From the IMG/VR virus record IMGVR_UViG_3300025617_000013, positions 1 through 64,000 of that record: a stretch of DNA of 64,000 nucleotides; one strand, 5' to 3'. A model generated the notes under the pieces. The model was not told the origin of the DNA. It searched no databases and was given only the letters and a program-made list of their open reading frames with translations. The DNA comes from a virus. Each line of letters begins with the position of its first letter. Positions within the stretch are counted from its first letter, which is position 1. The position numbers and the translations under genes were made by a program. Below, one piece after another: positions 35,953 through 58,354 of the stretch.

Positions 35953-35957
35953 AATGT

Positions 35958-36386: not shown

Positions 36387-36406
36387 GAATATTTTTCTTA
36401 TATTAA
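36376..36406 (+). promoter_or_regulatory. early promoter TTG-N20-TATATTAA (primase/exonuclease)
   Basis: TTG 36376-36378, TATATTAA 36399-36406. Confidence 0.7.
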
Positions 36407-36432
36407 ACTAATAACTAGTTACAGAACATAGT

Positions 36433-37356: not shown

Positions 37357-38135
37357 TCAAACAAGGAATGAATATTCTCGAACAAAACGAGAAGAAAAGA
37401 TTAGACTTTCAACCACAGTTGAAACAAATTAATTTTTTAGACAGAAGAGTTTACAAAAGATCGGAAGGAGTATACTATCCCTCTGTAACTACCATACTCC
37501 AATATATGCCCAAGAATAAGTTTTTTGAGTCTTGGCTCAAAGACGTTGGGCATAATGCCGATCTTATTATGAGAAGAGCAGGTAAACAAGGTACTCAAGT
37601 ACATGAAGCTTGTGAAAAACTAATCTTAGGAGAAGAGGTTTCTTGGATGGACGATTATGGTAATGCTAAATATTCCCAAATAGTATGGGAAATGATTTTA
37701 AAGTTCCATGATTTCTGGACCACACATAAACCAGAACTTATTTCTGCCGAAGAATTTGTATGGTCAGATGAACATAAGTATGCAGGTACAGCTGATATTG
37801 TATGTAAAATGAACGGTGAGATTTGGTTATTAGATATTAAGACCTCCAACTCTATCCATAAATCTTATGATTTACAGTTAGCTTCTTATGCTAAGGCATT
37901 AGGAGAATCTAAAGGAGTTAATATTGAAAGAACTGGTATTATCTGGTTGAAAGCTCAATCTAGAGGTCCATCTAAACAGAAGAACGTTATTCAAGGTAAA
38001 GGATGGAAACTATTACAGATAGATGAAATCGATAAAAACTTTGAACTGTTTCAAATGATTTATAAGCTATACAGTTTAGAGAACCCTAATACAGAACCTA
38101 TTTATAATAGTTATCCAACTACTCTAAAACTATAA
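37353..38135 (+). CDS. PD-(D/E)XK exonuclease (Cas4/lambda-exo-like)
   Basis: YPSVTTIL, GT.VH, AGTAD, DIKTS, QLASY. Confidence 0.85.
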   Translation: MIKQGMNILEQNEKKRLDFQPQLKQINFLDRRVYKRSEGVYYPSVTTILQYMPKNKFFESWLKDVGHNADLIMRRAGKQGTQVHEACEKLILGEEVSWMDDYGNAKYSQIVWEMILKFHDFWTTHKPELISAEEFVWSDEHKYAGTADIVCKMNGEIWLLDIKTSNSIHKSYDLQLASYAKALGESKGVNIERTGIIWLKAQSRGPSKQKNVIQGKGWKLLQIDEIDKNFELFQMIYKLYSLENPNTEPIYNSYPTTLKL

Positions 38136-38187
38136 GAGCAAAGGTTAAGATTATAGAGTATAGGGAAAATTAAAATTATAAACAGAT

Positions 38188-39129
38188 ATGATAAAACTAT
38201 CAGACATAATCTTAGAACAAAACAGTAGGCCAAAAGCTGTAATTATGGCAGGAGGAGCAGGTTCAGGTAAGACCTACCTACTCAACCAGTTAGGACTAGA
38301 CAGTCTACTCAATCTCAACCCAGACAAGTACATAGAGGATCCCAACCATCCTTACTATAATAAACTAGGTCCAGCAGCCAGCCAAGTAGCCAAAGACGCA
38401 GCAGCAGCAGCAGAAGAAGGTACTAGCTTTGTATGGGATACCACTGCATCTGGTGCTAGATTTGAAAAGCAGCTAGATGACCTGCTTGCAAAAGGATACG
38501 ATGTATATATGGTAATGGTGTATGCACACCCAATGATATCTTATGTTTCTAATTTTATGGCTAGAGACAGAAATATACCTGCAGATGCTGTATTCTCTAC
38601 TTGGAGAAATATCTACCAGAAAATAGAAGATTATAATAGAAAACTTAAAGGTAACTTATCTATTTTTGTTTCTGATAGAGGAGGTAAATATAAGAAAGAA
38701 ATAGAAGGATTCGATACTGCAGCCAAAAGTGGTTTAAGTGGAGTAAAAGACTACTTAGAAAAATTTAACGAAAAAAACAGTATTGGAGGTTCGTCTTTCT
38801 TTAAACCAGTAGAAATGTCTACTGAAGAAGAAGAGGAGTTTAAAAAAGAAGTAGGAAGTATAGACTGGAATAAAGATAATAGATCTGAAGATAAAGCTAT
38901 AAAAACAGCATTCTTAAAAGCTTACCGAAAAAATGGTGTAGGACCTGGTCAAGATAAACTTAGAGATGCAGTTAAAAAGTATAGAGTAAGTAGTGAAAAA
39001 AGAAAGCAATCTGCTGATGAAGTATTAGATAATATTATCGATATGATATATAATCCTACTTTTCAAGAAAAACTTAAACACTCTACCCCTAAGGAAATAG
39101 ATCAAAAAGTACAAACATTCTTAGCATGA
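38188..39129 (+). CDS. P-loop kinase (zeta-toxin/AAA_33-like) with CTS-like leader MIKLSDIILE
   Basis: MAGGAGSGKT Walker A, NPD, FVWDTT, R.R. Confidence 0.75.
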   Translation: MIKLSDIILEQNSRPKAVIMAGGAGSGKTYLLNQLGLDSLLNLNPDKYIEDPNHPYYNKLGPAASQVAKDAAAAAEEGTSFVWDTTASGARFEKQLDDLLAKGYDVYMVMVYAHPMISYVSNFMARDRNIPADAVFSTWRNIYQKIEDYNRKLKGNLSIFVSDRGGKYKKEIEGFDTAAKSGLSGVKDYLEKFNEKNSIGGSSFFKPVEMSTEEEEEFKKEVGSIDWNKDNRSEDKAIKTAFLKAYRKNGVGPGQDKLRDAVKKYRVSSEKRKQSADEVLDNIIDMIYNPTFQEKLKHSTPKEIDQKVQTFLA

Positions 39130-40181
39130 TAGCATTATACCCAGGAGCTTACAAACCACCTCATAGAGGACATTTCAACGTAGTAAAATCTTTACTTGAC
39201 GGTTCATATAATGGTGCTGTATATAATAAAGATAATTATAAAGAAACCGGAGCTGAACTTCTTAAAGGTAAAAGAGAGAATAAACCTAAGATAAATAAAG
39301 TTATTATATTTGTAGGAGGCGGTGAGAGAAACGGTATAACTAAGGAAGAGTCGATGTCTATATGGAACATTTACGCTAAGTATTTAGGTAATGTTGAAAT
39401 TGTAGATGGACAGAAAAATCCAATGTTTGCTGCTAAGGATCACGCACAAGCAAATCCGAAAGAAGAATTTGTAGCGGTAACAGGGATTAGAGGTGAAAAA
39501 GATTTTGTAGATTTAAAAAGAGTTACCACTTTTAAGAATGCACCTAACGTTCAAGGATTAGCTTTAACAGCAGCACCGGGATCCGGAGTAAGAGCAACAG
39601 ATTTTAGGAATAATATACTCTCAGGTAATTTAGATAAAATTACCGACTTCTTTCCTGAAGAATTATCTAGAGAAGAAATACTTAATATATTAACAGATTT
39701 GAAAGACAAGATAGTAGCTGAAATTTTAGCTTCTAATATTGAAGGATTTGTAGAAGGTTATTTTAAAGAAACTGAAAGTATTGAAGAAGTTATACAAGAA
39801 CAACAGTCCGGCCCTCAATTAAAAGACTATATTACTTCTTTAACAGAGTATATGTTAGAATTAGGGATGAATATTACTCCACTACCGGAAGTTAAATTAA
39901 GAAGAGATGAAGCCAATGCTGCTAACTTTTTCGGTAGAACAGCATACTATGACCCTAATGCAAGAGAAGTAGTACTTTATATAACAGGTAGACACGATAA
40001 GGATATAGTAAGATCATATGCTCATGAAATGATTCATCATATGCAAAACCTTCAAGGTACCTTACACAATATACAAACTCAGGATACTAACGAAGATGAT
40101 AAGCTTTTAGAATTAGAAAAAGAAGCATATACGTTAGGTAATATTACTTTCCGTAACTGGGAAGATGGTTTAAAAAACTGA
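39126..40181 (+). CDS. HIGH-type nucleotidyltransferase fused to HExxH zinc-metallopeptidase-like domain
   Basis: PGAYKPPHRGH and RAT..R in the N-part; SYAHEMIHHMQ...EKEA in the C-part. Confidence 0.75.
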   Translation: MIALYPGAYKPPHRGHFNVVKSLLDGSYNGAVYNKDNYKETGAELLKGKRENKPKINKVIIFVGGGERNGITKEESMSIWNIYAKYLGNVEIVDGQKNPMFAAKDHAQANPKEEFVAVTGIRGEKDFVDLKRVTTFKNAPNVQGLALTAAPGSGVRATDFRNNILSGNLDKITDFFPEELSREEILNILTDLKDKIVAEILASNIEGFVEGYFKETESIEEVIQEQQSGPQLKDYITSLTEYMLELGMNITPLPEVKLRRDEANAANFFGRTAYYDPNAREVVLYITGRHDKDIVRSYAHEMIHHMQNLQGTLHNIQTQDTNEDDKLLELEKEAYTLGNITFRNWEDGLKN

Positions 40182-40189
40182 TAAAAAAG

Positions 40190-40220
40190 TTGGAAAATTG
40201 CATAAAAGTTCGTATATTAA
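40190..40220 (+). promoter_or_regulatory. early promoter TTG-N20-TATATTAA
   Basis: TTG 40190-40192, TATATTAA 40213-40220. Confidence 0.7.
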
Positions 40221-40250
40221 GTATGTTAATTAACGCTAAATAAAGGTTTT

Positions 40251-40841
40251 ATGAATACAAGTATTGTAGATTTATTAGAAGCTTATCCGCTTCCTGAACA
40301 AAAAGAAACTCCTCCATATAAGATTTACTGTGATATGGACGGTGTATTAACTGATTTCGAAAAAAGATTTCATGAAAAACTTAATGAAGTAGGTCCTGAT
40401 TATTATCCATTAAAAGATATTAAAAAGGTAGTTAAACCTAAAGACTTTGAAGCTATATTTGGTATTGAAGAATTTTGGAACTTTATAGACGGTATAGTAG
40501 GAATTGGTTTTTGGGTAGGTATGGATTGGATGCCTCAAGGAAAAGCACTATGGAACTTCATCTCTCCTTACAAACCAGAACTACTTACTTCTCCTTCAAG
40601 AGATAATGCTTCTAGATTAGGTAAAAATTTATGGGCTAAAAACCAACTAAGCCCTAAACCAAGAGTAATTTTCGCCTACTCTAAAGATAAACAGAGATAT
40701 GCTAATGCTAATAGTATATTAATAGACGACAAAAAATCAAATATTGAACAGTGGATAGCAAAAGGAGGAATCGCTTTTAGAGTTAAAGACGGTGACATCG
40801 GTCCTGTTATTCAAGGACTAAAAGAACTAGGTTATGAATGA
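40251..40841 (+). CDS. HAD-family 5'(3')-deoxyribonucleotidase
   Basis: IYCDMDGVLTDF, LLTSP, GK..W, ILIDD. Confidence 0.85.
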   Translation: MNTSIVDLLEAYPLPEQKETPPYKIYCDMDGVLTDFEKRFHEKLNEVGPDYYPLKDIKKVVKPKDFEAIFGIEEFWNFIDGIVGIGFWVGMDWMPQGKALWNFISPYKPELLTSPSRDNASRLGKNLWAKNQLSPKPRVIFAYSKDKQRYANANSILIDDKKSNIEQWIAKGGIAFRVKDGDIGPVIQGLKELGYE

Positions 40842-41409
40842 AAGCGCTCTTAAAAAAGAGTTTAACAGATCAGATGTAGAGAGGATAAGAAACTTAGTTA
40901 ATAAGGATTTTACGTCTGGTACTAAATCTCAATCTGGATATAAGAAAACTTCTAAAAGATATAAAGAAGGTGATGTTTGGGAAGAAGGTGGAAAACAATG
41001 GACCATTAAGAACGGCCTTAGACAGAACATTACTAAATTAGATGCAGCTAAAAAAGCAGCACAAGTACCATTAAAATGCCCTAAATGTAGCGGCTCAATG
41101 TCTTACCATCTCAGTAAAAAGATTTATAAGATAAACAAGATGTGTTTTAATTGTTTTATAGATTATGAAGCTGAATTAAGAAGAAATGGTCTTTACGAGG
41201 ATTACTTAATACACGCTAGAAAAGGTAACCTTAAATACTTTATTAAGGAACTAGAAGAAAAGTTTGCAGAAGCTTTAGAATACGACGATACTTTCGTAAC
41301 TGAACAAGGTGATATAGAGTCATGGAATACAAATAAAAGTATTAATCGAAATCAGATGACCGAAAAGTTTAAAGAATATATAAGTTACCTGAGAAGTAAG
41401 CTTGATTAG
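40834..41409 (+). CDS. zinc-finger hypothetical protein
   Basis: CPKC...CFNC. Confidence 0.7.
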   Translation: MNESALKKEFNRSDVERIRNLVNKDFTSGTKSQSGYKKTSKRYKEGDVWEEGGKQWTIKNGLRQNITKLDAAKKAAQVPLKCPKCSGSMSYHLSKKIYKINKMCFNCFIDYEAELRRNGLYEDYLIHARKGNLKYFIKELEEKFAEALEYDDTFVTEQGDIESWNTNKSINRNQMTEKFKEYISYLRSKLD

Positions 41410-41452
41410 TATATATTTATATTTATATACTACTTTATATTTTTAAAGCCTT

Positions 41453-41812
41453 ATGACACAAAAAGAACTGCTAGAATCAGTATTATCTGAGCTTGTACAT
41501 ATTAAGAAGCATATGCCAAACGGCGAGCTTAAAGCAATGCTTATAGATGTAAAAGACCTAAAAGAAGATATGTCTGACCTTAAATTTACACTACTTAACC
41601 CAGAAAATGGTGTGATAGTTAAGACAAATCAAAATACTGAATTCAGAAAATTCATGCAAGGAAACGAGAAAGAGTTTCAAGCCAAAATGATAGAGTTAGC
41701 AGAATTCAAAAGATGGAAAGAAGGAGTAAATAAAGCCCTTTGGATATTATTTACAGTACTTGCAGGTGTTGTAATTAAACTTTTATCTGAAGTCCTTAAA
41801 TCAGGAGCATAA
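41453..41812 (+). CDS. coiled-coil protein with C-terminal TM helix
   Basis: ALWILFTVLAGVVIKLL; TATTTATA at 41414/41420. Confidence 0.7.
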   Translation: MTQKELLESVLSELVHIKKHMPNGELKAMLIDVKDLKEDMSDLKFTLLNPENGVIVKTNQNTEFRKFMQGNEKEFQAKMIELAEFKRWKEGVNKALWILFTVLAGVVIKLLSEVLKSGA

Positions 41813-42366
41813 TGTCAAACACTAAAAAGAAGATACCTGCAGATATACAAGCTTTTATGAGGGAACTCATACAGGAATCTTTACGTGATTGGTTTAAAAA
41901 AGAAAAGTGGGTTAGAATATCGTCATCTGGTAATATAGCAGGTCCTTGCGGAACATCTAAAAATAAGAAGAATCCAGATAGATGCTTACCCAAAGCAAAG
42001 GCACAGAGTTTAACTAAAGGCCAAAGAGCCGCTACTGCAGCTAAGAAAAAGAAAGCAGGAGCTAAAGGTAAACAGGTAGTACCGAATACAAAAAAAGGAA
42101 AAGTAACAAAAGCATATGTTAGAGAAATGATACATCAAGTTATCATGGAAAAAGATGATAGATGTACTCGCATTGCTAAACGTAAATACGATACCTGGCC
42201 ATCAGCTTATGCTTCAGGAGCAGTAGTTAGATGTAGAAGAGGTGAAATCTGGAAAGGAGTAAAAGAAGAAACTCTTGATGAAATGAATTGCAAGTACGGT
42301 AAGTATTACTGCACAACCGATAAAAAATATAAGTGTAGAAAAGGACCTAAAAAGTCCAAAAATTAA
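41812..42366 (+). CDS. basic modular protein (three Cys/Lys-rich modules separated by (I/L)xE sites)
   Basis: SLRDWFKKEKWV...CLP; KYDTWPSAYASGAVVRCR; CKYGKYYC. Confidence 0.75.
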   Translation: MSNTKKKIPADIQAFMRELIQESLRDWFKKEKWVRISSSGNIAGPCGTSKNKKNPDRCLPKAKAQSLTKGQRAATAAKKKKAGAKGKQVVPNTKKGKVTKAYVREMIHQVIMEKDDRCTRIAKRKYDTWPSAYASGAVVRCRRGEIWKGVKEETLDEMNCKYGKYYCTTDKKYKCRKGPKKSKN

Positions 42367-42374
42367 ATAAAGAA

Positions 42375-42572
42375 ATGCCCGTAAAACTAAAACCCAGCAT
42401 TAAGCAGTACTTAAAAGATAAAAATGGTAAACAGACTAGTACCTGGGTGTGGGTACATTATACGGTGAAAAATACACCTACAGTTGAGTTGAAAAAGTAT
42501 TATGAAAATCCATCTTTTTCAAGAAAAAAACAAGTAATTAAAAGAGAATTAGAAAGAAGAAATGCCATTTAA
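42375..42572 (+). CDS. small basic hypothetical protein
   Basis: ORF track, coupled to the next gene. Confidence 0.65.
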   Translation: MPVKLKPSIKQYLKDKNGKQTSTWVWVHYTVKNTPTVELKKYYENPSFSRKKQVIKRELERRNAI

Positions 42573-42768
42573 AAAGTCACAATTAAGAGAGTTAGTATTA
42601 GAAGTTATGTACGAAGGAGTACATGACCCTGTTAAACCTGGCATTCTTAAAAAAAGACTCGGCAAACTTTCTTGCTCAAAAGTAAGATCAGCTAAATCTG
42701 GTCTCAAGAATAAAGGAACGCATTATGCTAAAGCGTTACAACGTTATTTAAATTATCATTGTCAATGA
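42562..42768 (+). CDS. small basic protein with CTS-like leader (KKSQLRELVLE)
   Basis: ORF track. Confidence 0.65.
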   Translation: MPFKKSQLRELVLEVMYEGVHDPVKPGILKKRLGKLSCSKVRSAKSGLKNKGTHYAKALQRYLNYHCQ

Positions 42769-43394: not shown

Positions 43395-43433
43395 TCTATT
43401 TATTTATATAGCTATACAATAAAACACACTACG

Positions 43434-46400
43434 ATGACGTACGATGAAATTAAGCAACGGCTAGCACAGGTTGAAAACACATTGCAAACTATCAGCAATA
43501 CAGGAAAACCGGTATTAGTTAATTCATACACCGCTAAATCTTTAGAAAAACTAACTACTCTAAAAGAATCACTACAAAAACAATTAGCAGAAAAAGACGA
43601 GACTATGTTCATTTCTACCAAAGGAGGCGATACTAAAGCCGTTAAAATGGATAGAAAGACTGCCATGGATCTTAAAAAAGATCCTAACATTACAGGAATC
43701 GATACAGCAAAAGGTCAATCCTTAAAAGAAGTAGACAGATTAATTAAAAACTCAGGTGTAGAGTTTGATAAAAAGGAAGTAGCAATTGTTGCTAAATCTA
43801 CCGGTAAAGCATTAGCCATTGCATTAAAGAAAGCAGGTGATGAAATCGCTAGAATGAAAGCTATAAGATTGGATGTTAATAGTTTTGATGTAGAGGTAAC
43901 GTATAAAGGTGAAAACAGAGGCTATGATGAGTTTTCTTTTTATATTACCGATAACGAGTTACATCTAGTAGATTTTTCATTCGACAAAACACTAGTCCAA
44001 GTAGGTGTTAAGCCTTCAGGAGAACCAATCGTAAACGTGGATGTACTAGCAAATGAACTCTTAAAACACTTCAAATCTTTAAATGAGCAAGTAAACGAAG
44101 TAAACTACGATTATTACACTACCCCAAAACATTTTGATATCTGCCCAGGAGCTGAAACATTAAGAGATGAAGTTTTAGCAAGCGGTAAATCACCTGAAGA
44201 ATTAGGAGAATGGACCTTTAAACATGACGAATTATTTAGATTAGAAAAAGCAGTCTTAAAAGCAAATAAAGCTGACGAAAGACATGTTAAAGTAGCTAAA
44301 CAATTAGCAGGAGAAATTACTCACCTTTCTAGAGATTTAGGAATTGAAGCCAATAAAATAGGGTACTTAAAAGGGCACGTTAAGAAAATCGAAGATGTAG
44401 CTAACAAGACTGATGGACGTGGTGATAATATGTCATTAAGAAGCAGAGACATTTATGAAGGTGAAGGAGATGACCATCATTACATTAAAGTAAAATCACA
44501 TGATTATAAGAAGGCTATGGCTATCTTAGATCAAAACATAGATCCAACTTACGTAAAAACAGAAGTAGTTGACGACGACGGAGCAGGTAACGTAATTATT
44601 TACTTTATATTCAGACATGAATACGGATTCGACGATATGTACGATGATCCAGAAGGTAAAGAAAACCCAGAATTTTATCAAGAACCAGACGAAGATCCAA
44701 ATGCGTTTGTGTATGATGTAGTAATGGATTTACGAGCAAACGATATTGAACTAGCAGATCATTCAGCTGAAATGGATGAAGATTACGATCCAGATCAAGA
44801 GCAGAAACACGACGAAGAAGATCATGGAGTAGCATACGATGACGACGGAAGACCTCTAGGAGAGGATTTAGACGTTGGACATCAAGATGATGAGCCTAGT
44901 ATGTTAAAATCTTCTGCTTTCGAAACAGCTACCTATGCTGCTAAATTAGCAAAGAAATTAGCTCAATATGATCAAGTAGACGGAGAAGTAGATTTTCCTA
45001 ACTGGTGGCAAAAGAAATTAATATTAGCTAGAGACTATATGTCTGCAGCATATCACTACTTAGAATCAGAAGAAAAACAACCTCTTATTGATAAGTTAGC
45101 TTTAGAATCTGTTAGTGAAGTTTCTTTAAATAAGATACAAAAATCTTACGACCAGACAATTAGTATAATGAAAGATCTTGCTAAAAAATATAAGGCAGGA
45201 GACAAATCAGTAGTTGATCAATTAAAAACTTTAACTATAACAAAGAAAAAGTTAGAAAAGCAATTAGATGATAAAATATCTGGCTCAGGAAGGGATCAAG
45301 AATTAACTATTAATGAATCAGCATCTAGAGATTTAGATGAAATATTTGGAGCATTAGGATATAGACAGGGGTTTGATGAATTTATTGAAGATAACCCAGG
45401 ATGTGTAGAAGTAATAATGGAATGGATCGGAGGAATATCTGATTTTCAAGAAAAATTATCTCAAGAATACGATAATGAAGAGTTAGAAAATTTAGGATTT
45501 TACTTTGGCGATGATGATTATAACGAAGTAATTAGAGAGTCACTAAACCCAGAAGTATCCCAAGCAGTAAATCGTTTTATTAAAGCAATGGCTAAACGAT
45601 ATAGCTACAGCGAACAAGATGCTGTATTTGCTATCATGGCTGCTTTAAAACAAAGAAAATTTGATGGTTTAAATGAAGCTAATAATTTACTTAAACAAGA
45701 CGCATTATCACCTGCAGAATATCAAAAAGCTAAAAAATTAAAGGGATTTGATTCTAAAAATTATAAATGGGATAAAGATCAAGAACTTCATTTAATTAGA
45801 AAAATGAGTGAAGATTTAGATGTAGGTAAAAAACCTCTGAAAGAATTTACTGATAATAGTTTCAAAGGTTCAGAACTAATCGACGATGCTAATAGTAACG
45901 CACCTGATATGTTTGGTAAACAAATATTTGCAGATCTATTACCTAAAGGAGTAGCTAGTGAAAACGATGCAATTGAAGCTTTAAAGAAACATGATAAGAG
46001 TGGTATCAAAGCTAGAATGGGACAGTATGCTCCTATGTTTGTTCACGTTCAATACCATGAATTAGAGCATGAAGGTGAATACTATAGAATGCATCAAAGA
46101 CAATACTATAACAGTAACTTTAAAGATAGAGACCCAGACTTTAATCCTGCAGTATCTAAAATTACATTATTTAAGATTACTAAGAAAGCAGCAGATAGAC
46201 GTGATAAAGAAGAAAAAGAAGTGTTAGGAACTATACTAGTTAAAACAGATCAGTACGTACAAGATCTAAGAAACTTACCTGGATTAGGTAAGAGACATAT
46301 GGAAGAAGCTACTAGACAAGATTTAGGAATGGTATCATCTATATCTAAACGTAGAGCTAAAGCACACTTAAAGAACCCATCTAATGATGGATCTAAAGTA

Positions 46401-46784
46401 TACGGTTTAGATAAGGACGGCAAAAGAGTTCATATTAAAAATATCAACGACGTAGATAAATTTACAAAATTCGAAATTGATGCTGATTTAAAAGAAGCTA
46501 AAGGAGGTCAAATAATGCCTGGAGATTATGTTAAAAATCAACACGGTAATATTTACCAAAGAGTAGATGGAAAAGTCGGTAGACATGATGCTTATGTTAG
46601 AGTTACTAACGGCAAACCAGGTAAAAAGAAAACTGGCTTACATGACTCTTTTAAATTAACTTTAGTTAAGAAAGACGAATTAACTGAAGGAGCAACATGC
46701 TGCGGTAAATGCGGTAGAGTACATGTTAAAGGAAACTGTAAAAGACCTTTTTTAAAAGGAAAGTCTCACTGTAGAAATAAATAA
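43434..46784 (+). CDS. large acidic mosaic head-associated protein (putative polyprotein, 1116 aa)
   Basis: TATTTATA at 43401; many (I/L/M/V)xE junctions; modules shared with 46788. Confidence 0.75.
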   Translation: MTYDEIKQRLAQVENTLQTISNTGKPVLVNSYTAKSLEKLTTLKESLQKQLAEKDETMFISTKGGDTKAVKMDRKTAMDLKKDPNITGIDTAKGQSLKEVDRLIKNSGVEFDKKEVAIVAKSTGKALAIALKKAGDEIARMKAIRLDVNSFDVEVTYKGENRGYDEFSFYITDNELHLVDFSFDKTLVQVGVKPSGEPIVNVDVLANELLKHFKSLNEQVNEVNYDYYTTPKHFDICPGAETLRDEVLASGKSPEELGEWTFKHDELFRLEKAVLKANKADERHVKVAKQLAGEITHLSRDLGIEANKIGYLKGHVKKIEDVANKTDGRGDNMSLRSRDIYEGEGDDHHYIKVKSHDYKKAMAILDQNIDPTYVKTEVVDDDGAGNVIIYFIFRHEYGFDDMYDDPEGKENPEFYQEPDEDPNAFVYDVVMDLRANDIELADHSAEMDEDYDPDQEQKHDEEDHGVAYDDDGRPLGEDLDVGHQDDEPSMLKSSAFETATYAAKLAKKLAQYDQVDGEVDFPNWWQKKLILARDYMSAAYHYLESEEKQPLIDKLALESVSEVSLNKIQKSYDQTISIMKDLAKKYKAGDKSVVDQLKTLTITKKKLEKQLDDKISGSGRDQELTINESASRDLDEIFGALGYRQGFDEFIEDNPGCVEVIMEWIGGISDFQEKLSQEYDNEELENLGFYFGDDDYNEVIRESLNPEVSQAVNRFIKAMAKRYSYSEQDAVFAIMAALKQRKFDGLNEANNLLKQDALSPAEYQKAKKLKGFDSKNYKWDKDQELHLIRKMSEDLDVGKKPLKEFTDNSFKGSELIDDANSNAPDMFGKQIFADLLPKGVASENDAIEALKKHDKSGIKARMGQYAPMFVHVQYHELEHEGEYYRMHQRQYYNSNFKDRDPDFNPAVSKITLFKITKKAADRRDKEEKEVLGTILVKTDQYVQDLRNLPGLGKRHMEEATRQDLGMVSSISKRRAKAHLKNPSNDGSKVYGLDKDGKRVHIKNINDVDKFTKFEIDADLKEAKGGQIMPGDYVKNQHGNIYQRVDGKVGRHDAYVRVTNGKPGKKKTGLHDSFKLTLVKKDELTEGATCCGKCGRVHVKGNCKRPFLKGKSHCRNK

Positions 46785-46787
46785 GAT

Positions 46788-49496
46788 ATGCATAAGTTAG
46801 AAAAACTCATATTAGAGTCTTACGTCGAACTACTTAACGAAATGGATGGTGGTCGATTATTTGATTATTTTGCTAATAAAGGATACAAAGTAACAGAACG
46901 TAGACCAGATGGTTATCCACCAAAACCAGGAGTAGAAGGATATCAGGTAAATAGGGGCAGTGGTAGATATCCTCAATCAGTAATATTTCAACATAATAAG
47001 GATACTGATGAATTTACAATCAGTAGAATGAGTGGATATAGAATTGATCAAAAAAATGCTATAAAAGCAGGAATGAGAGAAGCAGGCAGTTCAGGAGCAG
47101 CCGGTATGGATTCTTATATGACAGATGGTAACTACACACCAGTAGGTATTTCAGCTGAAGGCTTAAAAGATATAGTAGACCATGTTATGACTGGTTTAGA
47201 TCGAGAAGCTAAAGCACAAGGTGACTTTTATAAAGCTAGAGGACGTACATCAGGTACTATAGATGAAATGGCTAAAGCTGATATGGAAAAAAAAGCCGGC
47301 AGTAATGTTATCCAGTGGGAAGATCTTACAGATAAACAAAGAGCCGGGATCGTTAAAAGGTACGGTGAACCAATGTTTAACGGAGAGCATGATTTCTTTA
47401 GTAAAGACATGACTACCTACTTTAAGACTAATAGTAAAAGTAAAGAAACAGGTAGTATAGGTCATTCAATCATTACATTACCTTCATTCTCCTCCCTATA
47501 TAAGAACTTCTCAGACATTATTAACGATATTAAAAAGTTAATGGGTTCTGATGATGTAAGGGGAGATGAAGCAGCTAGAGAGCTTTTTGATATCACTAAA
47601 ACTAACTTTAGAAAACTACAAAGATACCTAAGAACAGAAAGACCTGAGCAATATAGAATGCTTAAAATGCAGAGAATGATGGAGGGTATCAAATCGTCTT
47701 TTTCTAAGATAGAAGAGAAGATGGATATTAATGATCCAGTTATGCTAAAAGTAAGACGAGCTAAAATGCATTCAGATAGAATGAAAAAATTAGATGCTTA
47801 TTTAAAATCTCCTGAAGGTAAAGCTGCTGCACGAGCACAAGCTAGTGCTGAAAGAAAAGAACAAAAAGCTAGAGAGATAGTTCGTAAATTAAAGATCAAG
47901 AGAGCCCAAGTAGAAAGAGAGATGGAGAACGATCCAGACATCGAACCTCAAGGAGGCCCAGTATCTGATATGTACGGAGACCAATTAAATAAAATTGACA
48001 ATGCTATTGAAAAAGCAGCATCTGTATACAATAAACCTATGGACTACGATACAGCAGTCGGTAAAATAAATGAATTTGTAGGTGATGCTTGGGAAAAAAG
48101 AAATGGAATTCTTTATGACAAACTTGTTAAAGGTTCTGGAAAATCAGATACTGTAGAAGGAGAAATTTTGAGAGCAGTAAATAGAATTATATATAGATGG
48201 GGTAATGATGGAGATTACTTTTGGAAAGGGTACGGAACAGAAACAGTAGGTCCTGCTATATCATACTTAGTTAATAGCTCAATGATACCACAAATAATCC
48301 AAAGTAAATTTAATGCTTGGGAAAGTAATAATGAAGGTAAAAATTACGGTATAAAAGAATTAGAAGATCTTCTTGCAATAGCTTTAGAGTATATAGAAAG
48401 GAAAGACGAAAGTGAATATTCTAAGAATACAGAAGATATGTTTGATTACGAATCTGAGTATCAAGATGAAGAAGAAGATGATTACGATGATTATGATGAT
48501 TACGATGAAGAAGATGATGAATATTTTCAAGAAGGTTCTGCAACACATGATGATGGTGGAGATTTAGATGTAGGACATCAAGATGATGAGCCTGCAATGC
48601 TAAAAAATAAAATGTATAGAGCAGCCAAACTTGCAAACATGCTATATGACAAGTTAGATGCTTATGACCAAATGCCTCAAGAAGTAGACTTTCCAGATTG
48701 GTGGCAAACAAAGCTATCAAAAGCCAAAGATATGATTCAATCCTGCTATGATTACTTAGATGGAGAAGAAGGAATGGCTGAAAAAGATGCTGAGAATACA
48801 CAACCAGATATCGCAGCACTAGCTTTAGAGAATGTAAATGAAGACAAATCAGACGCTATTAGATGGTTCGGTAACTTAAAGTATTATTACCAAAAAGCCT
48901 TTACAGAACTTAAAGGTGAAGACAGAGAAACTTATAAGCAATTAACTAAAGACTTCTTTTCTAAACTAAAAATTGATAAACACGTACGCCCAGTAGGGTT
49001 ATCTGAAAGTGAAGGACAAGACTTATCAGAATTAAAACCTGGAGATAAGTTTGAATTCAACGGAAAAACATTTACCTTAATACAACATATAGAAGGAAAT
49101 ATCGCTAAAGTAATACGACCAAACGGAGATACTTCAACAGTTTCTTTTGGAGGTAAAGTAAACACTGGAAAGAAAGCCGGTATTGGACCTGATGCTTTCG
49201 GACAAGGAAAAGGCCATCACATAGATGAAGATCATTCTAAAAACCCAAACGACAAATATGTTGTACGTCCATGTAAGAATAAGAAAGAGCCTTGGGCGGT
49301 ATGGGAAGGTGAAAAGAGAGTTAAAGGATTTGCTGAAAAGAAAGATGCTCAGGCATATGCAGACAAGCAAAATAAGGAACAGGGGCTAAACGAAGAAAAA
49401 TCAACTTGTTGCGGTAAATGTGGTAGAAAACACGTTAAAGGAACAAAATGTAAAACTCCTTACTTAAAAGGAAAAGATCACTGTAGAACTAAATAG
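46788..49496 (+). CDS. large acidic mosaic head-associated protein (putative polyprotein, 902 aa)
   Basis: MHKLEKLILE leader; shares modules with 43434 and 49498. Confidence 0.75.
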   Translation: MHKLEKLILESYVELLNEMDGGRLFDYFANKGYKVTERRPDGYPPKPGVEGYQVNRGSGRYPQSVIFQHNKDTDEFTISRMSGYRIDQKNAIKAGMREAGSSGAAGMDSYMTDGNYTPVGISAEGLKDIVDHVMTGLDREAKAQGDFYKARGRTSGTIDEMAKADMEKKAGSNVIQWEDLTDKQRAGIVKRYGEPMFNGEHDFFSKDMTTYFKTNSKSKETGSIGHSIITLPSFSSLYKNFSDIINDIKKLMGSDDVRGDEAARELFDITKTNFRKLQRYLRTERPEQYRMLKMQRMMEGIKSSFSKIEEKMDINDPVMLKVRRAKMHSDRMKKLDAYLKSPEGKAAARAQASAERKEQKAREIVRKLKIKRAQVEREMENDPDIEPQGGPVSDMYGDQLNKIDNAIEKAASVYNKPMDYDTAVGKINEFVGDAWEKRNGILYDKLVKGSGKSDTVEGEILRAVNRIIYRWGNDGDYFWKGYGTETVGPAISYLVNSSMIPQIIQSKFNAWESNNEGKNYGIKELEDLLAIALEYIERKDESEYSKNTEDMFDYESEYQDEEEDDYDDYDDYDEEDDEYFQEGSATHDDGGDLDVGHQDDEPAMLKNKMYRAAKLANMLYDKLDAYDQMPQEVDFPDWWQTKLSKAKDMIQSCYDYLDGEEGMAEKDAENTQPDIAALALENVNEDKSDAIRWFGNLKYYYQKAFTELKGEDRETYKQLTKDFFSKLKIDKHVRPVGLSESEGQDLSELKPGDKFEFNGKTFTLIQHIEGNIAKVIRPNGDTSTVSFGGKVNTGKKAGIGPDAFGQGKGHHIDEDHSKNPNDKYVVRPCKNKKEPWAVWEGEKRVKGFAEKKDAQAYADKQNKEQGLNEEKSTCCGKCGRKHVKGTKCKTPYLKGKDHCRTK

Positions 49497-49497
49497 T

Positions 49498-50550
49498 ATG
49501 GATAAAATACAAAAACTTATTTTAGAAGCATATAGTAAGGTATCTGAAAGAACTGAAGGTACTAAAAAACTCAAAGAACTACCAGATGCCTTTGTAAAAG
49601 CTCTAAGTAAAAAGTACGGAGAAGTAGATATGGAAAATGATTTCGTATCTCCCAACCTAGATACATACTATAAACATACAAGTACTAATAAAAAAACCGG
49701 TAGTATCGATCATAAGATTTATGAACTACCTTCTTTTTATAAACTGTACGGTGAATTTGAATCTATTATAAGTGATATAAAAACTTTAATGGGAAACGAA
49801 GATGTACGAAACGATCAAGCAGCCCGTGAATTATTTGAACTTATCAAAACTAACTTTAGAAAACTTCAAAGCTACTTAAGAAAGGAAAGACCAGATCAAT
49901 ATGCTATCATAAGAGGTAGAGCAGAATTAAAAGAACTACATGAATCTTTTTTAAAAACCGCTTCACTTATTAACGAGTCTTTAATTGATGAGTTAGAAGA
50001 TAAACCAGAACCTGAAGAGGAACCTGATACTGATGCTCCAAAAGAAACTGTTCTTGAAGATGCTACAGATAAAATTTTAGGTAAATTTCCAACTTTAAAA
50101 GCTGCTATAACTAAACTTCAAACAGAAGACTTTAAAGAGTTTGTAGACAGTATAGATTGGATTTCACCCCGACCTACTTCTTTTCGTATTAATTTAAAAA
50201 ACGGACAAGATTACGTTTTAAAATGGACAGGTAAATCATTTCAAGCTCAAATTTTAGGTAAAAGGTATTTACTTTCTAATATAGCAGACTATCAACAAGC
50301 TCTTGATAAATTAGCCATACTCTATAAAGAAGCACCTTTAAAAGGAGCAGGAGAAGGAGAAGGCGGAGAAACAGGAGATGAATTTACCGGAGGTGGAGGA
50401 GGAGATTTTCCTGGCGAAGAAGGTGGAGCAACAGGAGGTGAAGATGACTTTGCAGCAGACGATACCGGAGGCGGTGATGAAGGTGGCGGAGAAGATTTAT
50501 CCGGTGAACCAATAGATTTTGAAGACACAGCAGAAGAACCAGAAGCATAG
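49498..50550 (+). CDS. mosaic head-associated protein with Gly/Glu-rich tail
   Basis: MDKIQKLILE leader; N-module shared with 46788. Confidence 0.75.
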   Translation: MDKIQKLILEAYSKVSERTEGTKKLKELPDAFVKALSKKYGEVDMENDFVSPNLDTYYKHTSTNKKTGSIDHKIYELPSFYKLYGEFESIISDIKTLMGNEDVRNDQAARELFELIKTNFRKLQSYLRKERPDQYAIIRGRAELKELHESFLKTASLINESLIDELEDKPEPEEEPDTDAPKETVLEDATDKILGKFPTLKAAITKLQTEDFKEFVDSIDWISPRPTSFRINLKNGQDYVLKWTGKSFQAQILGKRYLLSNIADYQQALDKLAILYKEAPLKGAGEGEGGETGDEFTGGGGGDFPGEEGGATGGEDDFAADDTGGGDEGGGEDLSGEPIDFEDTAEEPEA

Positions 50551-51630
50551 ATGGATATTATAGATAAATTATATACGGAATGGGCTTGGAGAACTAAAAA
50601 TGGTACCCCAGATATTAATAACCCTGAAGATAAAGGTATTTTAGATTCTTTAATTAAGGAATTATCCGGTAACGAAGGAGGAGTATCTAAAAAAGAAGTA
50701 CTTACAGCTATTAATCAAGGAGATTTTACACCAGAACAGTTAAAATCTATACTTAATACTGTGTCCGGTCTTGCTTATAAAGCAGATATAATTAAATATC
50801 TTAATACAAAAGGGAAAGGTGTAAGTTCTATATCTAATAGAATTTATAACATTATGGTAGAAAATGGTGATATTAAAACTTACCATGATGCAGTAACAGG
50901 AAACAAGTTACCTTCCTATAATGCTTTAGGAAGTGAAGGTAATTTAAAAAATCTTTTTTCAAAGTATTATTCCGCTGATACGATTAATTTCTTATTTGAT
51001 ATTAAACCTCAAATAGGTAACGTAGCTACCGGAAAAGGAGAAATATTACTTAGCGTATTATGTTCAGACGTCACTGGAGATACCAGAGCCGGTGATATAG
51101 AAGCTTCAGGAAAACCAGTAGAAGTAAAAAATAGAGGAGCAAAACCCTACGGACAGAAAGCACAGTATGGAACTAATAGCGATAAAACGTTTATTGATTC
51201 TAGTGTAAAAAATACTCAAAGAATTGTTGGAGAGTTAGATCAGGTAGTAACTAAAGGTAGTAGACCTTTTCATAGGTTAAATATTATTTTAAAAGCTGCT
51301 CAAGAAGTAGATAATACAAAAACAGAAGAAGTTATTAACGGATTCACCGAAGCGTTGAAGACAAGCTATCCAGGATTAGATTTAACAAACTTTGATTTAA
51401 AATCATTTAAATCTGGTACAGTATTAGATGCAGACAAGATTGAACAAGAATTCGGTAAATTAGTTATAGACCATTATAGAACTTTAGAGGATTTTGAAGA
51501 AGTTTTATTTTTAGATGATAAATCTGGTAATTATGCTAAAGTACCTACTGATAAACTAGTTAGTTTGGTTGGTACTAAAATAGCTGTAGTACAAAAAGAC
51601 GGTCTTCCTCGATGGTCTTATAAATTTTAG
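50551..51630 (+). CDS. putative PD-(D/E)XK endonuclease-like protein
   Basis: GKGEILL...GDIE...VEVK. Confidence 0.5.
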   Translation: MDIIDKLYTEWAWRTKNGTPDINNPEDKGILDSLIKELSGNEGGVSKKEVLTAINQGDFTPEQLKSILNTVSGLAYKADIIKYLNTKGKGVSSISNRIYNIMVENGDIKTYHDAVTGNKLPSYNALGSEGNLKNLFSKYYSADTINFLFDIKPQIGNVATGKGEILLSVLCSDVTGDTRAGDIEASGKPVEVKNRGAKPYGQKAQYGTNSDKTFIDSSVKNTQRIVGELDQVVTKGSRPFHRLNIILKAAQEVDNTKTEEVINGFTEALKTSYPGLDLTNFDLKSFKSGTVLDADKIEQEFGKLVIDHYRTLEDFEEVLFLDDKSGNYAKVPTDKLVSLVGTKIAVVQKDGLPRWSYKF

Positions 51631-56019: not shown

Positions 56020-56255
56020 AACGATCTGAATTAGTTAATCTAGTTAAAGAAGTTTTAGGGGAGTTAGATGAAGCAAACGTAACCGGTGGATCAGCAACCT
56101 TTACACCAGGTACCGGAGCACAATATGCTACTCCTAACGCCTTTTCAAAAAATAAAAAAGGTAACAGAGCAACAAAATTATTAAAGAAATTAGGCTGGAA
56201 AAAGCAGGAACGCCCAAAACGGCCATCACATACTAAAATGTTTGACTACTTATGA
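56016..56255 (+). CDS. small head-module protein with CTS-like leader MKRSELVNLVKE
   Basis: ORF track; basic C-part after LDE. Confidence 0.7.
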   Translation: MKRSELVNLVKEVLGELDEANVTGGSATFTPGTGAQYATPNAFSKNKKGNRATKLLKKLGWKKQERPKRPSHTKMFDYL

Positions 56256-58354
56256 GACAGGTAACTGCAACAGAAAAATATAGAGCCGTAAACGAAGGTA
56301 AGCTCGCTGAAGGCGAATTCGTACGTCAAATGCGCTTATCTTACCCTTCAGTTATTTCGCAATGGAGTAGCTTTAAGGATACTGTAACTATACTTAAAAA
56401 TAGAGGATATATCACAGAAAAATCAGGAGTTGATACTTATGATAGTCGAGTTAATTTAAACATCTCTCCTAATTCAATAGATAGAGGAGTTCGTTATGAA
56501 TTAAGTGGACAAGATGTTGATCCTACAACTACTACAGATAAAGAACTTGTAGCTAAAATCACCGACAGAGTAGTTAAGAACCTTAAGAAAGATCCACTTC
56601 ACTATATTAACTTATTATCAAAGGAATCTAATAAAGTAGATAAACATGATAAAGAAGTTGAAACTAAAAGAGGAGCAAAAGATAAAGACGTTATAAACGG
56701 TTTGAAGAAAGCAACCTTGAAGGAAGATTCTACTCCTAAACAGAAAGACTTTTATGCAGATTATACTGACATAGGTATGTTCTATATGGAGAAACATGGA
56801 AATATCTATAAAGGTAAAGAACAGGTACTATCAGATGCACAATATGAGGATTTAGGAAAGAAGATTGTTGATCAGCTGTATGATGGAGATATAGCAAAAG
56901 CATATGATGATTTAGCAGTTCCAGGATTAGACGCTGCCGCCAAGAGGTTAGCTGATGATGGTAAGCTTATCAATCCTCAAAAAGTAGACGGTACTCCTGT
57001 AGAAGAAGAAGACGGATACAATACAGATCCTAACCTTCAAATGCATATCGATGATGAAGAGTGGGAAAGAGAAATGGGAAGAGGCCCTAAAGAAGACGTA
57101 GTTAAAGAAGCAGGTAAAGCCGCTCTTATTCAAACTATGAACAATGCAATCTCAGCTATTAAAGGTAAATACGGTAAAATATCAGGTATTTCTGGTATCA
57201 TTAGAGATTTTTTAAAGACACATTTAGATGACTTAGCAAATGGAGCAGATCCATTAGATGAGTTTGAAAACTTTGTAGATATTAACTATGATTCATTATC
57301 AGAAACAGAAATATCTGAAGAAGATATAGATACAGATGGATATGTAGAATCAATGGGACCAGAATTTGATGTAGCAGTAGAACAATTAGTCGCTGCATTT
57401 GAAGATTGGAAATCGGGTCCAATGACTGAACCGGAAATGATTCCTTATGCAGTAAAAGATGTAATCGGATACCTGCAAGGCAAATTAGGAGGAACTTTAG
57501 CTGAAGCAGCTGGACCAGATCCAGAATCTATTTGCCCGGAATGTGATGGTTCAGGATGCGACCACTGTGACGGTACAGGAGCACACAAAATAAGAGAAGA
57601 AGATTATGTTCCAAAAAGAAGAGGTGCATTAGAAGAAAGAGTAGGAGGATTACAAGAATTTATTTCGTTAATAGAAGATAGAGCAGCAGAAAACGACACT
57701 ACAGAAGCTGATGAAGCAGAAGAAGTAGTTTATGCTATAGGTGACCATTACAACTTTGGTGTAGACATTATGCATGCTCCAAACGAAGCTAAAGGAAAAG
57801 ATCATGACGGAGATGGAGACATCGATGGAGATGATTATATGGCTGCTAAAGATAAAGCTATCAAAAAAGCCATGGGTAAAGATGAAGCTTTTTTAAAGGA
57901 AAATATTAAATCAATTATTACTAAAGTTCTTGAGGAAGAAGTAATCGTAGAAGCAGCTACAGGTAATCTTGCTAAATACTCAGAAGAGTATGGAGGATTT
58001 GAAGGTCTACCAAATGCTATTAATCAACTTGAGAATATAGTTACAGATGTAGAGTCTTACTATAACAAGGTTAGAGAGAAACTTCAAAAAGTATACAACG
58101 ATATAGGTAATATTACCAATGAAGAAGGTTTAAAAGTTGGAGGATTTATCGCACCATCAATTGAATCTGCTTTCCTTAAAGATCTTAAACCAGTAATTGC
58201 TAAAGGATTTACTAAAGGATTAGAAACTCCTAAAGTAAAAACTATTTCTCAAGCCGATATCATGTCAGCAAGAATGGAACAGGGATTAGATGAGAAAGAG
58301 ATAGAAGAGAAACAAACAATGTTTACTCCGGTTCACGAAACTAAAAAGAAATAA
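56252..58354 (+). CDS. acidic mosaic prohead-core protein with CxxCxGxG zinc finger and DxDxDG Ca-binding-like loop
   Basis: CPECDGSGCDHCDGTG at about 57533; DHDGDGDIDGDDY at about 57800. Confidence 0.7.
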   Translation: MRQVTATEKYRAVNEGKLAEGEFVRQMRLSYPSVISQWSSFKDTVTILKNRGYITEKSGVDTYDSRVNLNISPNSIDRGVRYELSGQDVDPTTTTDKELVAKITDRVVKNLKKDPLHYINLLSKESNKVDKHDKEVETKRGAKDKDVINGLKKATLKEDSTPKQKDFYADYTDIGMFYMEKHGNIYKGKEQVLSDAQYEDLGKKIVDQLYDGDIAKAYDDLAVPGLDAAAKRLADDGKLINPQKVDGTPVEEEDGYNTDPNLQMHIDDEEWEREMGRGPKEDVVKEAGKAALIQTMNNAISAIKGKYGKISGISGIIRDFLKTHLDDLANGADPLDEFENFVDINYDSLSETEISEEDIDTDGYVESMGPEFDVAVEQLVAAFEDWKSGPMTEPEMIPYAVKDVIGYLQGKLGGTLAEAAGPDPESICPECDGSGCDHCDGTGAHKIREEDYVPKRRGALEERVGGLQEFISLIEDRAAENDTTEADEAEEVVYAIGDHYNFGVDIMHAPNEAKGKDHDGDGDIDGDDYMAAKDKAIKKAMGKDEAFLKENIKSIITKVLEEEVIVEAATGNLAKYSEEYGGFEGLPNAINQLENIVTDVESYYNKVREKLQKVYNDIGNITNEEGLKVGGFIAPSIESAFLKDLKPVIAKGFTKGLETPKVKTISQADIMSARMEQGLDEKEIEEKQTMFTPVHETKKK

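Follow-up and report, generated by a model that had tools for sequence, protein, structure and literature searches.

The stretch of DNA analyzed here (the window) comprises positions 1 to 64,000 of IMG/VR record IMGVR_UViG_3300025617_000013, a phage contig 87.7 kb in length. Its subject is three adjacent open reading frames (ORFs), P0001, P0002, and P0003, which encode proteins of 1116, 902, and 350 amino acids (aa) and lie at the coordinates given by an initial annotation made from the letters alone. P0001 and P0002 are separated by 3 nucleotides (nt), and P0002 and P0003 are separated by 1 nt. The large genes of the window are all on the plus strand, and the GC content is ~34%. In the terminase and portal genes, the DNA has 76% identity to that of Flavobacterium phage vB_FspM_immuto (genus Immutovirus), a myovirus of 160 kb, and the source is an uncultured, immuto-like, T4-type phage of the Flavobacteriia. 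The three chains together hold ~22 modules of 45 to 240 aa, arranged as follows (↓ marks the position after the Glu of a joint, and a number at the Glu is its position in the protein).

43434 to 46784, plus strand: P0001, a 1116-aa mosaic of ~13 modules, leader type MTY-E-I-K-x-R-L
43434 to 44087, plus strand: P0001 module a (aa 1 to 218), N-terminal alpha/beta module, ends SLNE218↓
within 44100 to 44780, plus strand: P0001 module b (aa 223 to 342), ends DIYE↓
within 44100 to 44780, plus strand: P0001 module c (aa 343 to 449), starts GEGDDHHY, ends EMDE↓
44865 to 45119, plus strand: P0001 module E' (aa 478 to 562), DLDVGHQDDEP...WWQ, paralogue of P0002 589 to 685
45120 to 45845, plus strand: P0001 modules f, g, h, and i (aa 563 to 804), joints TINE628↓, VIRE702↓, GLNE748↓, PLKE804↓
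45846 to 46307, plus strand: P0001 module j (aa 805 to 958), the most conserved module, with invariant His, Asp, and Glu and VHVQYHxLEHEG
within 46308 to 46781, plus strand: P0001 modules k and l (basic), joints HMEE958↓, DLKE1021↓, ELTE1085↓
46689 to 46781, plus strand: P0001 Cys-rich basic C-terminal peptide (aa 1086 to 1116), TCCGKCGRVHVKGNCKRPFLKGKSHCRNK
46788 to 49496, plus strand: P0002, a 902-aa mosaic of ~10 modules
46788 to 46841, plus strand: P0002 leader, MHKLEKLILE10↓ and then SYVELLNE18↓
46842 to 47267, plus strand: P0002 module A (aa 19 to 160), alpha/beta domain, MDGGRLFDYF...SGTIDE↓
within 47268 to 48443, plus strand: P0002 module B (aa 161 to 310), paralogue of P0003 28 to 160, joint KIEE310↓
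within 47268 to 48443, plus strand: P0002 module C (aa 311 to 429), helical, joint KINE429↓
within 47268 to 48443, plus strand: P0002 module D (aa 430 to 552), helical bundle
within 48444 to 49493, plus strand: P0002 acidic low-complexity linker (aa 553 to 588), borders without the motif
within 48444 to 49493, plus strand: P0002 module E (aa 589 to 685), joint NVNE685↓
within 48444 to 49493, plus strand: P0002 modules F, G, and H, joints GLSE740↓, HIDE814↓, GLNE869↓
49395 to 49493, plus strand: P0002 Cys-rich basic peptide (aa 870 to 902)
49498 to 50550, plus strand: P0003, 350 aa, with leader MDKIQKLILE10↓, module B', linker, TVLE187↓, module m, and tail
P0003 module m (aa 188 to 282), conserved, followed by a Gly/Asp/Glu-rich tail that ends EPIDFEDTAEEPEA

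The initial annotation had described modules duplicated between these genes, and we recovered the duplications by alignment: P0001 465 to 636 matched P0002 583 to 749 (37% identity, E = 6e-24), module B of P0002 (176 to 307) matched P0003 24 to 153 (49% identity, E = 2e-36), and the Cys-rich C-terminal peptides of P0001 and P0002 were 73% identical. The leaders of P0002 (MHKLEKLILE) and P0003 (MDKIQKLILE) are also alike. The whole chains are acidic, with isoelectric points (pI) of 4.6 to 5.5. Cutting at the joints confirmed below is predicted to give ~30 pieces, of which modules B, C, F, H, f, h, i, k, and l and the Cys-rich peptide (+9) are basic (pI 9 to 10) and others are strongly acidic (pI 4.1). 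The very basic, Cys/His-rich 30-aa end of P0001 and P0002 (TCCGKCGRxHVKGxxCKxPxLKGKxHCRxK, net charge +9) may be a DNA-binding zinc knuckle; in gp079 of phage immuto this peptide is internal rather than terminal.

We looked into the motif at the joints, [ILMV]xE, first by number. The initial annotation had cautioned that some such sites arise by chance in Glu-rich proteins, and on the count this was right: P0001, P0002, and P0003 contained 20, 16, and 10 sites, respectively, against 19.4, 14.3, and 7.8 in composition-preserving shuffles. We therefore rejected the idea that the chains carry more sites than chance would give, and the question became the location of the sites rather than their number. 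By the same shuffle comparison the motif was enriched in the neighboring genes 55165 (15 versus 6.7) and 59129 (28 versus 18), as well as in 56252.

The placement of the sites was far from random. A site lay within 4 aa of 9 of 13 breakpoint clusters in P0001, 6 of 11 in P0002, and 3 of 4 in P0003, where permutation within these window proteins gave means of 1.9, 1.6, and 0.9 (P < 2e-4, P = 0.0016, and P = 0.03, respectively). Family-wide, we used BLAST breakpoints defined without reference to the motif, and the motif fell within 4 aa of 41% of 1604 breakpoint clusters versus an expected 16%, a 2.5-fold enrichment; decoy motifs ([ILMV]xD, xK, xQ, xN, [AGS]xE, [KRDE]xE, and others) gave 0.6- to 1.5-fold. 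Insertions between collinear homologues pointed the same way: across 222 distinct insertions of at least 25 aa, the left end had the motif no more than 3 aa away in 54% and the right end in 43%, and 26% of the indels had it at both ends, compared with at most 7% for decoys. We also followed 20 modules from the window proteins through 195 nonredundant family members, counting distinct flanking contexts, and 368 of 526 module borders (70%) bore the motif against ~8% by chance. Modules B (19/19), C (28/31), and D (15/15) and the Cys-rich peptide (16/16) had it in nearly every context, as did module A (all 23 upstream and all 41 downstream contexts), which stood at varied positions in proteins of 186 to 1527 aa. 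Module m with its tail closes the last mosaic gene in 95 nonredundant relatives and was preceded by the motif in 52 of 57 contexts.

Nearly all of the junctions listed in the initial annotation proved to be homology or indel breakpoints in relatives. The confirmed sites are 218/222, 342, 477, 562, 628, 702, 748, 804, 958, 1021, and 1085 in P0001 and 10, 18, 160, 310, 429, 685, 740, 814, and 869 in P0002. Two listed sites fell away, KMSE 793, which was conserved in 0 of 20 aligned homologues, and LALE 558, which has Ala at P3 and so departs from I/L-x-E. Around modules b and c of P0001 the breakpoints were at 339 and 450, and the tripeptide before module c varied among proteins (YNE, LSE, IYE, VKE, LGE, IKE, VNE, and LDE). 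Over P0001 558 to 1116, the pattern was kept among 35 collinear homologues at 562, 628, 636, 663, 702, 748, 804, 958, 1021, and 1085 while the residues at P3 and P2 changed (VNE, VSE, MNE, LDE, IKE, INE, and others); at the joints of modules f to i, where indels also occurred, 29 to 35 of the 35 homologues retained the motif with variable P3 and P2. Taken over 304 distinct joints, the consensus was I, L, or V (more rarely M) at P3, N, D, or K at P2, and E at P1, with P1' free. We considered DNA microhomology as a recombination signal at the joints and rejected it: the codons for P3, P2, and P1 vary among copies, which places the constraint at the peptide level rather than in the DNA.

Inside the modules the motif was avoided. 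Family-wide, module interiors held 343 [ILMV]xE sites where shuffles predicted 644 (ratio of 0.53), and the depletion was strongest in modules C (2 versus 85), E (1 versus 34), D (34 versus 103), and m (22 versus 80); decoy motifs gave interior ratios of 0.8 to 1.7. The rows compared share descent, so this ratio is not a P value, and the depletion recurs in several unrelated modules. The exceptions were module A and the N-terminal module of P0001. The latter, module a, opens ~100 relatives and bears the motif at its C border in 21 of 23 distinct downstream contexts; because its interior sites are not depleted (116 versus 105 expected), it may be a long propeptide.

We then compared the sites with AlphaFold2 models built from family alignments, which had mean predicted local distance difference test (pLDDT) scores of 66.8 for P0002 1 to 583 and 63.8 for P0001. 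Both models showed confident alpha/beta or helical domains split by segments with pLDDT < 50, located at 10 to 21, 147 to 159, and 304 to 324 in P0002 and including 219 to 222, 326 to 346, 448 to 485, 554 to 561, 618 to 657, 687 to 710, 735 to 802, 949 to 967, 1019 to 1025, and 1083 to 1092 in P0001; within the f-to-i region, the low-pLDDT segments are 618 to 657, 687 to 710, and 735 to 802. In keeping with the expectation that the sites mark domain boundaries, 20 of 29 sites lay in the segments with pLDDT < 50, which cover 28% of the residues (binomial P = 7e-6). The linker share of comparison motifs was 17 to 20% for [ILMV]x[DKNQST], 6% for [AGS]xE, 27% for [KRDE]xE, and 34% for all Glu residues. 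Enrichment at the joints together with depletion in the interiors is what is expected under selection by a protease of this kind, unlike a passive preference for linkers.

The modules recur, in varied order, number, and gene, in more than 2,000 metagenomic relatives. P0002 was matched by 797 relatives of similar length and 841 shorter ones, and the C-terminal half of P0001 was matched by 567; relatives covered 9 to 100% of the query, with pieces of P0001, P0002, and P0003 in many orders. Proteins of this module pool are numerous, with thousands in GOS, TARA, and JGI data. In a 785-aa protein (P0004) from a metagenomic 75.9-kb contig, residues identical at 100% to P0002 1 to 583 are followed by a P0003-type end, and the alignment indicates that the P0002/P0003 pair came to differ from it very recently, by insertion or recombination at the acidic linker. 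Two others (P0007 and P0008) pass from a P0001-like start to P0002 modules C, D, and E and then to P0001 modules, with module A near the end, and P0011 lacks module A, the gap falling exactly between LNE↓M and IDE↓M. The recurrence of modules in other orders and as stand-alone genes, which the initial annotation had proposed to look for, was thus found in both forms and with the same borders, and the homologues were not in general collinear over their full length; many relatives do align collinearly with the C-terminal half of P0001, with indels that fall at the joints. The "beads on a string" build proposed there holds in that modules shuffle between genes and between genomes and that hydrophobic-x-Glu joints lie in flexible linkers. 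Among cultured phages only immuto shares a module (E'), in gp079, a single 841-aa chain of the same build, whose parts are a leader (MKKLIRIVE↓), a stretch resembling module a, module E, the Cys-rich peptide, module m, and the acidic tail, with candidate joints such as ...MMNE↓N, ...DMNE↓S, ...ALNE↓K, and ...AVLE↓T. A copy of module D (P0002 aa 438 to 551, 48075 to 48443) occurs at 42% identity in the unannotated 595-kb "uncultured phage" record LR756511, which suggests that single modules spread well beyond the immuto-like clade.

Whatever follows them, the N-termini of 357 family proteins belong to a few classes. The commonest, MHKLEKLILE, was present in at least 115 of the 357, and MTY-E-I-K-x-R-L was present in ~100. 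An N-terminal leader of ~10 to 20 aa ending in I/L-x-E is found in P0002 (MHKLEKLILE10↓S) and P0003 (MDKIQKLILE10↓A). Stand-alone versions with the same borders exist for module j and for F plus G. A search of 1.84 billion representatives with module j returned 118 clusters, with the module at any position in proteins of 38 to 1486 aa, and [ILMV]xE directly preceded it in all 55 clusters with a complete N border. Its small stand-alone forms consist of a leader and the module (MIKLKNILKE↓LTD..., MIKLKNLLKE↓YTD..., MDEKKKIIKE↓YTD..., and MKKTLKE↓YTD...), and F plus G forms a 186-aa stand-alone protein behind the leader MKNLKKALQEIKE (P0202 and P0210).

Downstream of the mosaic genes lie the genes for packaging and the head.

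51633, plus strand: TerL gene
53238, plus strand: portal gene, T4-type
56252 to 58354, plus strand: fourth mosaic gene (700 aa), between portal and protease
58366 to 58944, plus strand: prohead protease, MEROPS S77, gp21-like (PF03420, E = 1.3e-33; phrog_207, E = 7.7e-51)
59129 to 60361, plus strand: Glu-rich scaffold-like protein in the gp22 position, N-terminus ...LLKQAIAE↓A (compare T4 gp22 ...QLIAE↓A)
60388 to 61971, plus strand: major capsid protein (MCP), gp23-like (BLASTP against T4 gp23, E = 2e-31)

The order after the portal is 55165, 56016, 56252, the S77 protease 58366, the scaffold-like 59129, and the capsid gene 60388. The mosaic genes had been placed just upstream of the terminase and portal; they are indeed near, but a nonmosaic 359-aa gene (50551 to 51630) separates P0003 from the terminase. 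The gp23-like capsid, S77 protease, TerL, and portal genes lie downstream of the mosaic genes in a constant order, including in relatives with only 47% identity, and at 31 further IMG/VR loci found via module j the carrier gene was always upstream of TerL, portal, protease, scaffold, and MCP.

The protease at 58366, which the initial annotation had called gp21-like, shares 36% identity with T4 gp21, whose catalytic H85 and S140 are matched in the alignment by His72 and Ser125; we presume from this resemblance that it is the processing enzyme. T4 gp21 cuts after Glu in I/LxE, with H85 and S140 as catalytic residues (PMC12991175). The predicted maturation site of the capsid protein, IVAE59↓AN (60556 to 60564), aligns with FLTE65↓AE of T4, and upstream of it GLLE34 and MILE50 match the T4 propeptide sites PLLE and KIFE, so the phage appears to follow the T4 rule at a bona fide substrate. 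The head genes are also tied to the mosaic genes by common sequence. Gene 56252 shares two modules with P0001-type proteins of relatives (P0008 and P0092), has breakpoints at 159 (TLKE158↓) and 547 (FLKE550↓), and on these matches belongs to the same module pool as P0001 to P0003. A 28-aa peptide of 59129 (aa 259 to 286, 59903 to 59986), ending NQDGDDEALSPEELANKHAGSPMKE↓, is 84 to 89% identical inside mosaic proteins of three relatives (L022, L046, and L054), where it is likewise followed by M-R-E.

The region upstream of P0001 holds replication and nucleotide-metabolism genes, with several small ORFs between the kinase-like gene and P0001.

36433, plus strand: primase-like gene
37353, plus strand: PD-(D/E)XK nuclease gene
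38188, plus strand: Zeta-toxin-like kinase gene

Several ORFs here carry leaders of 8 to 14 aa ending in [ILMV]xE: 35647 (MKLSQIILE↓), 35958 (MRLSHVILGE↓), 37353 (MIKQGMNILE↓, the nuclease), 38188 (MIKLSDIILE↓, the kinase-like gene), 40251 (MNTSIVDLLE↓), 41453 (MTQKELLE↓), and 42562 (...LRELVLE↓). The gene at 50551 begins MDIIDKLYTE↓, with Tyr at P3 and so off the strict motif, and its immuto homologue gp078 begins MSVVDKIVIE↓. The leader-bearing ORFs at 35647 to 42768 and 50551 may be further capsid-targeted cargo. A 184-aa ORF (41812 to 42366) starts with MSNTKKKIPADIQAFMRELIQE, like two mosaic proteins that have DUF5824 at their C-terminal end (P0077 and P0089), and contains 6 [ILMV]xE sites where 1.4 are expected; it is possible that the module pool continues upstream of P0001. 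A TATTTATA box stands 25 nt 5' of the P0001 ATG (43401 to 43408) and also 20 to 30 nt before the portal gene, 55165, and several tail genes (53211, 55141, 16301, 18015, 22423, and 63796). These positions are weakly suggestive of a late promoter; the window total of 21 is not above chance (16.2 ± 4.1).

We searched for the function of the modules at the levels of sequence and structure. P0001 to P0003 had no Pfam, PHROG, or PDB match. DUFs aside, neither they nor 58 relatives had a Pfam or PHROG family, and no homology to IPI, IPII, IPIII, or Alt was found; the only Pfam matches of the relatives were DUF5824, a putative Zn-finger family, and DUF7084, in one or two sequences each. Pfam searches of the window proteins, the 58 relatives, and 10 distant module-j proteins returned no conflict domains (MPTase, ART, ParB-like, nucleases, lysozyme, and others). 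Among PDB sequences, a profile built from 61 P0001-type proteins had no match at E ≤ 1, and Foldseek found nothing at E ≤ 0.001 for both models against PDB or for the P0002 model against BFVD; a weak, repeated Foldseek row for the McrB N-terminal domain (probability of 0.3 to 0.47) was not credible. A wide VIA-align search with the P0001 model returned only helical hairpins matching residues 559 to 624 (Z of ~8 to 9), which is helix background, and in the ESM Atlas module A reached only template modeling (TM) scores of 0.36 to 0.49 to YbjN-like folds, with nothing for module j. The invariant residues of module j (His853, Asp854, His871, His875, His879, Glu880, and His887) look like a metal-binding or catalytic center, and of all the modules j is the likeliest to be an enzyme.

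Among known systems, the T4 internal proteins IPI, IPII, IPIII, and Alt resemble the mosaic chains in their N-terminal leader of ~10 aa ending in I/L-x-E, in the S77 protease of the head cluster, and in the diverse, fast-evolving cargo behind a conserved leader (PMC3012670, PMC5694885). The T4 capsid-targeting propeptides are 10 to 20 aa long and are removed by gp21 (PMC5694885, PMC3012670), and the stand-alone leader-plus-module genes of the relatives have exactly the layout of T4 internal proteins. The T4 proteins, however, are single, small, and cut once, whereas here up to 13 unrelated modules with internal sites stand behind one leader, without sequence similarity to them; packaging, cutting, and injection have been shown in T4, whereas here packaging and cutting are predicted and injection is a possibility. 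The T4 core proteins gp22, gp67, and gp68 also combine several I/LxE sites and acidic stretches in one chain, and they are cut to short fragments that exit the capsid (PMC5694885). Gene 56252 is in the gp67/gp68 position, and a peptide is shared with the gp22-like 59129. The core proteins are nevertheless small, mostly helical, and site rich (21 sites in the 269 aa of gp22), unlike mosaic chains of 350 to 1116 aa with sites at the joints and few inside folded modules, and P0001 to P0003 lie upstream of TerL and not between portal and MCP as T4 core genes do; only 56252 lies there.

Polyvalent proteins contain 2 to 15 shuffled domains, are encoded beside portal and terminase genes, and are predicted to be delivered with the DNA (Iyer et al. 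2017, PMC5512222). They share with the mosaic chains the many shuffled domains per chain, the packaging-gene neighborhood, and extensive mosaicism, but they are defined by recognizable conflict domains and have a built-in peptidase where processing is proposed; no such domain was detectable in the mosaic chains, and their joints fit a separate prohead protease. In the giant phages phiKZ, 201phi2-1, and SPN3US, many head-internal proteins, including paralogous families, are cut after Glu by a gp21-related protease, some head proteins at several sites (PMC5694885). Cleavage there follows A/S/G-x-E and mostly takes off long N-terminal propeptides, whereas the mosaic chains look cut throughout. 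We rejected the phiKZ-type specificity for the present joints, since [AGS]xE was enriched only 1.2-fold at breakpoints against 2.5-fold for [ILMV]xE and had 2 of 32 occurrences in linkers. Our literature search found no paper on cargo polyproteins of T4-type phages that are shufflable and delimited by sites, and the papers on immuto deal with other subjects.

Processing by the prohead protease fits these observations better than any rival that we tested, and we consider it probable that P0001, P0002, P0003, and the product of 56252 are precursor polyproteins of the prohead interior that are cut at their joints. A short N-terminal leader, which in P0002 and P0003 is M-x-K-L-x-K-L-I-L-E and in P0001 is replaced by a longer N-terminal module, would take the whole chain into the assembling scaffold core, like the capsid-targeting sequences of T4 IPI to IPIII and Alt. 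Once activated, the S77 protease 58366 would cut after the Glu of [I/L/V/M]-x-E in the linkers between independently folded modules, turning the three chains into ~30 pieces, namely, the ~22 modules, leaders, and acidic linkers. About half of the pieces would be basic and, like T4 internal proteins, could remain bound up with the DNA, whereas expulsion would be more probable for those that are strongly acidic. Recombination could add, drop, or reorder modules or move them between genes without harm to the others, and the extreme mosaicism would arise because each module bears its own cut site.

Several points weigh against this interpretation. The overall number of [ILMV]xE sites is not above chance; module borders were partly drawn from the sites, which makes the border test circular in part, unlike the breakpoint and indel tests, and homologous rows are not independent. 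The motif is absent at both ends of module E, at the C ends of D and m, and at the acidic low-complexity linkers, interior sites persist at P0002 37, 98, 299, and 524, and the P0001-type leader (MTYDEIKQRLAQVE) lacks a canonical I/LxE end. The specificity of the protease is extrapolated from T4 at 36% identity. No module had a recognized function by Pfam, PHROG, PDB profile, Foldseek, VIA-align, or ESM Atlas, and packaging, cleavage, and the fate and function of the pieces are predictions from sequence.

It is doubtful, but the best of the rivals, that the chains are prohead core or scaffold alone, an expanded set of gp22, gp67, and gp68 whose pieces exit before packaging with no delivery to the host. 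The exit of T4 core fragments from the capsid (PMC5694885), the 28-aa peptide shared with 59129, the modules shared with 56252 in the gp67/gp68 position, the strong acidity of several pieces (pI 4.1), and the conservation of the P0003-type terminal module and acidic tail, as of an assembly element, all agree with this. Yet the bona fide scaffold-like proteins are enriched in sites over their full length (59129, 28 versus 18; 55165, 15 versus 6.7), whereas mosaic modules avoid sites inside, which suggests that the modules must survive intact. Folded modules that keep 50 to 90% identity across contexts while coming and going freely would be unexpected of essential assembly parts, and half of the pieces are basic, as in the T4 internal proteins that are retained.

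We regard as unlikely the explanation that these are ordinary, uncut multidomain proteins in which hydrophobic-x-Glu is a favored domain-end or linker sequence (a helix end, for example) or a relic of former gene ends and starts. Several modules do begin with Met after Glu (MDGG..., MAKA..., and KMDIN...), as in gene fusion, and the motif behaves as part of the module in A (SGTIDE) and j (LKE-YTD). This explanation nevertheless leaves unaccounted for the approximately twofold interior depletion that decoys do not show, the same three-residue rule wherever unrelated modules are bordered, even as P2, P1', and register vary, the match to that rule at the aligned maturation site of the capsid protein, and the motif-ending 10-aa leaders on stand-alone forms.

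Least probable is a cytoplasmic, nonvirion role (host takeover or replication, for example), with the proteins uncut or cut outside the head: the genes border replication and nucleotide-metabolism genes (primase 36433, nuclease 37353, and kinase-like 38188) as well as head genes, some of those enzymes have similar leaders, and T4 gp21 is able to cut a cytoplasmic host protein (PMC12991175), but the synteny upstream of TerL, portal, protease, and MCP is constant in distant relatives, modules are exchanged with the portal-protease gene 56252 and the scaffold-like protein, and TATTTATA precedes the P0001 ATG by ~25 nt as it precedes portal, 55165, and tail genes (a weak point, its count not being above chance).

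The textbook example of proteins that enter the host together with phage DNA is the T4 internal proteins, each of which is single and small and has its own leader. If in the present phage one leader carries a dozen site-delimited modules, this would account for a class of giant "hypothetical" ORFs that is large and abundant in marine T4-type phages, their mosaicism would gain a mechanistic reason, and the modules would form a catalogue of candidate virion-delivered proteins. The motif rule of joint enrichment, interior avoidance, and linker location offers a computational route to prohead-protease substrates and their products, and the cultured relative immuto, with gp079, makes the idea directly testable. 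More tentatively, and with the odds against it, the joints could act as a universal adaptor, such that any small protein placed between two I/L/V-x-E linkers downstream of a single targeting leader would be loaded into the capsid, released by the head protease, and delivered with the DNA as part of an evolvable injected magazine of dozens of anti-defense or takeover proteins. Were this so, marine Flavobacteriia phages would reshuffle the magazine on short time scales, as the different C-terminal half of P0004 may illustrate.

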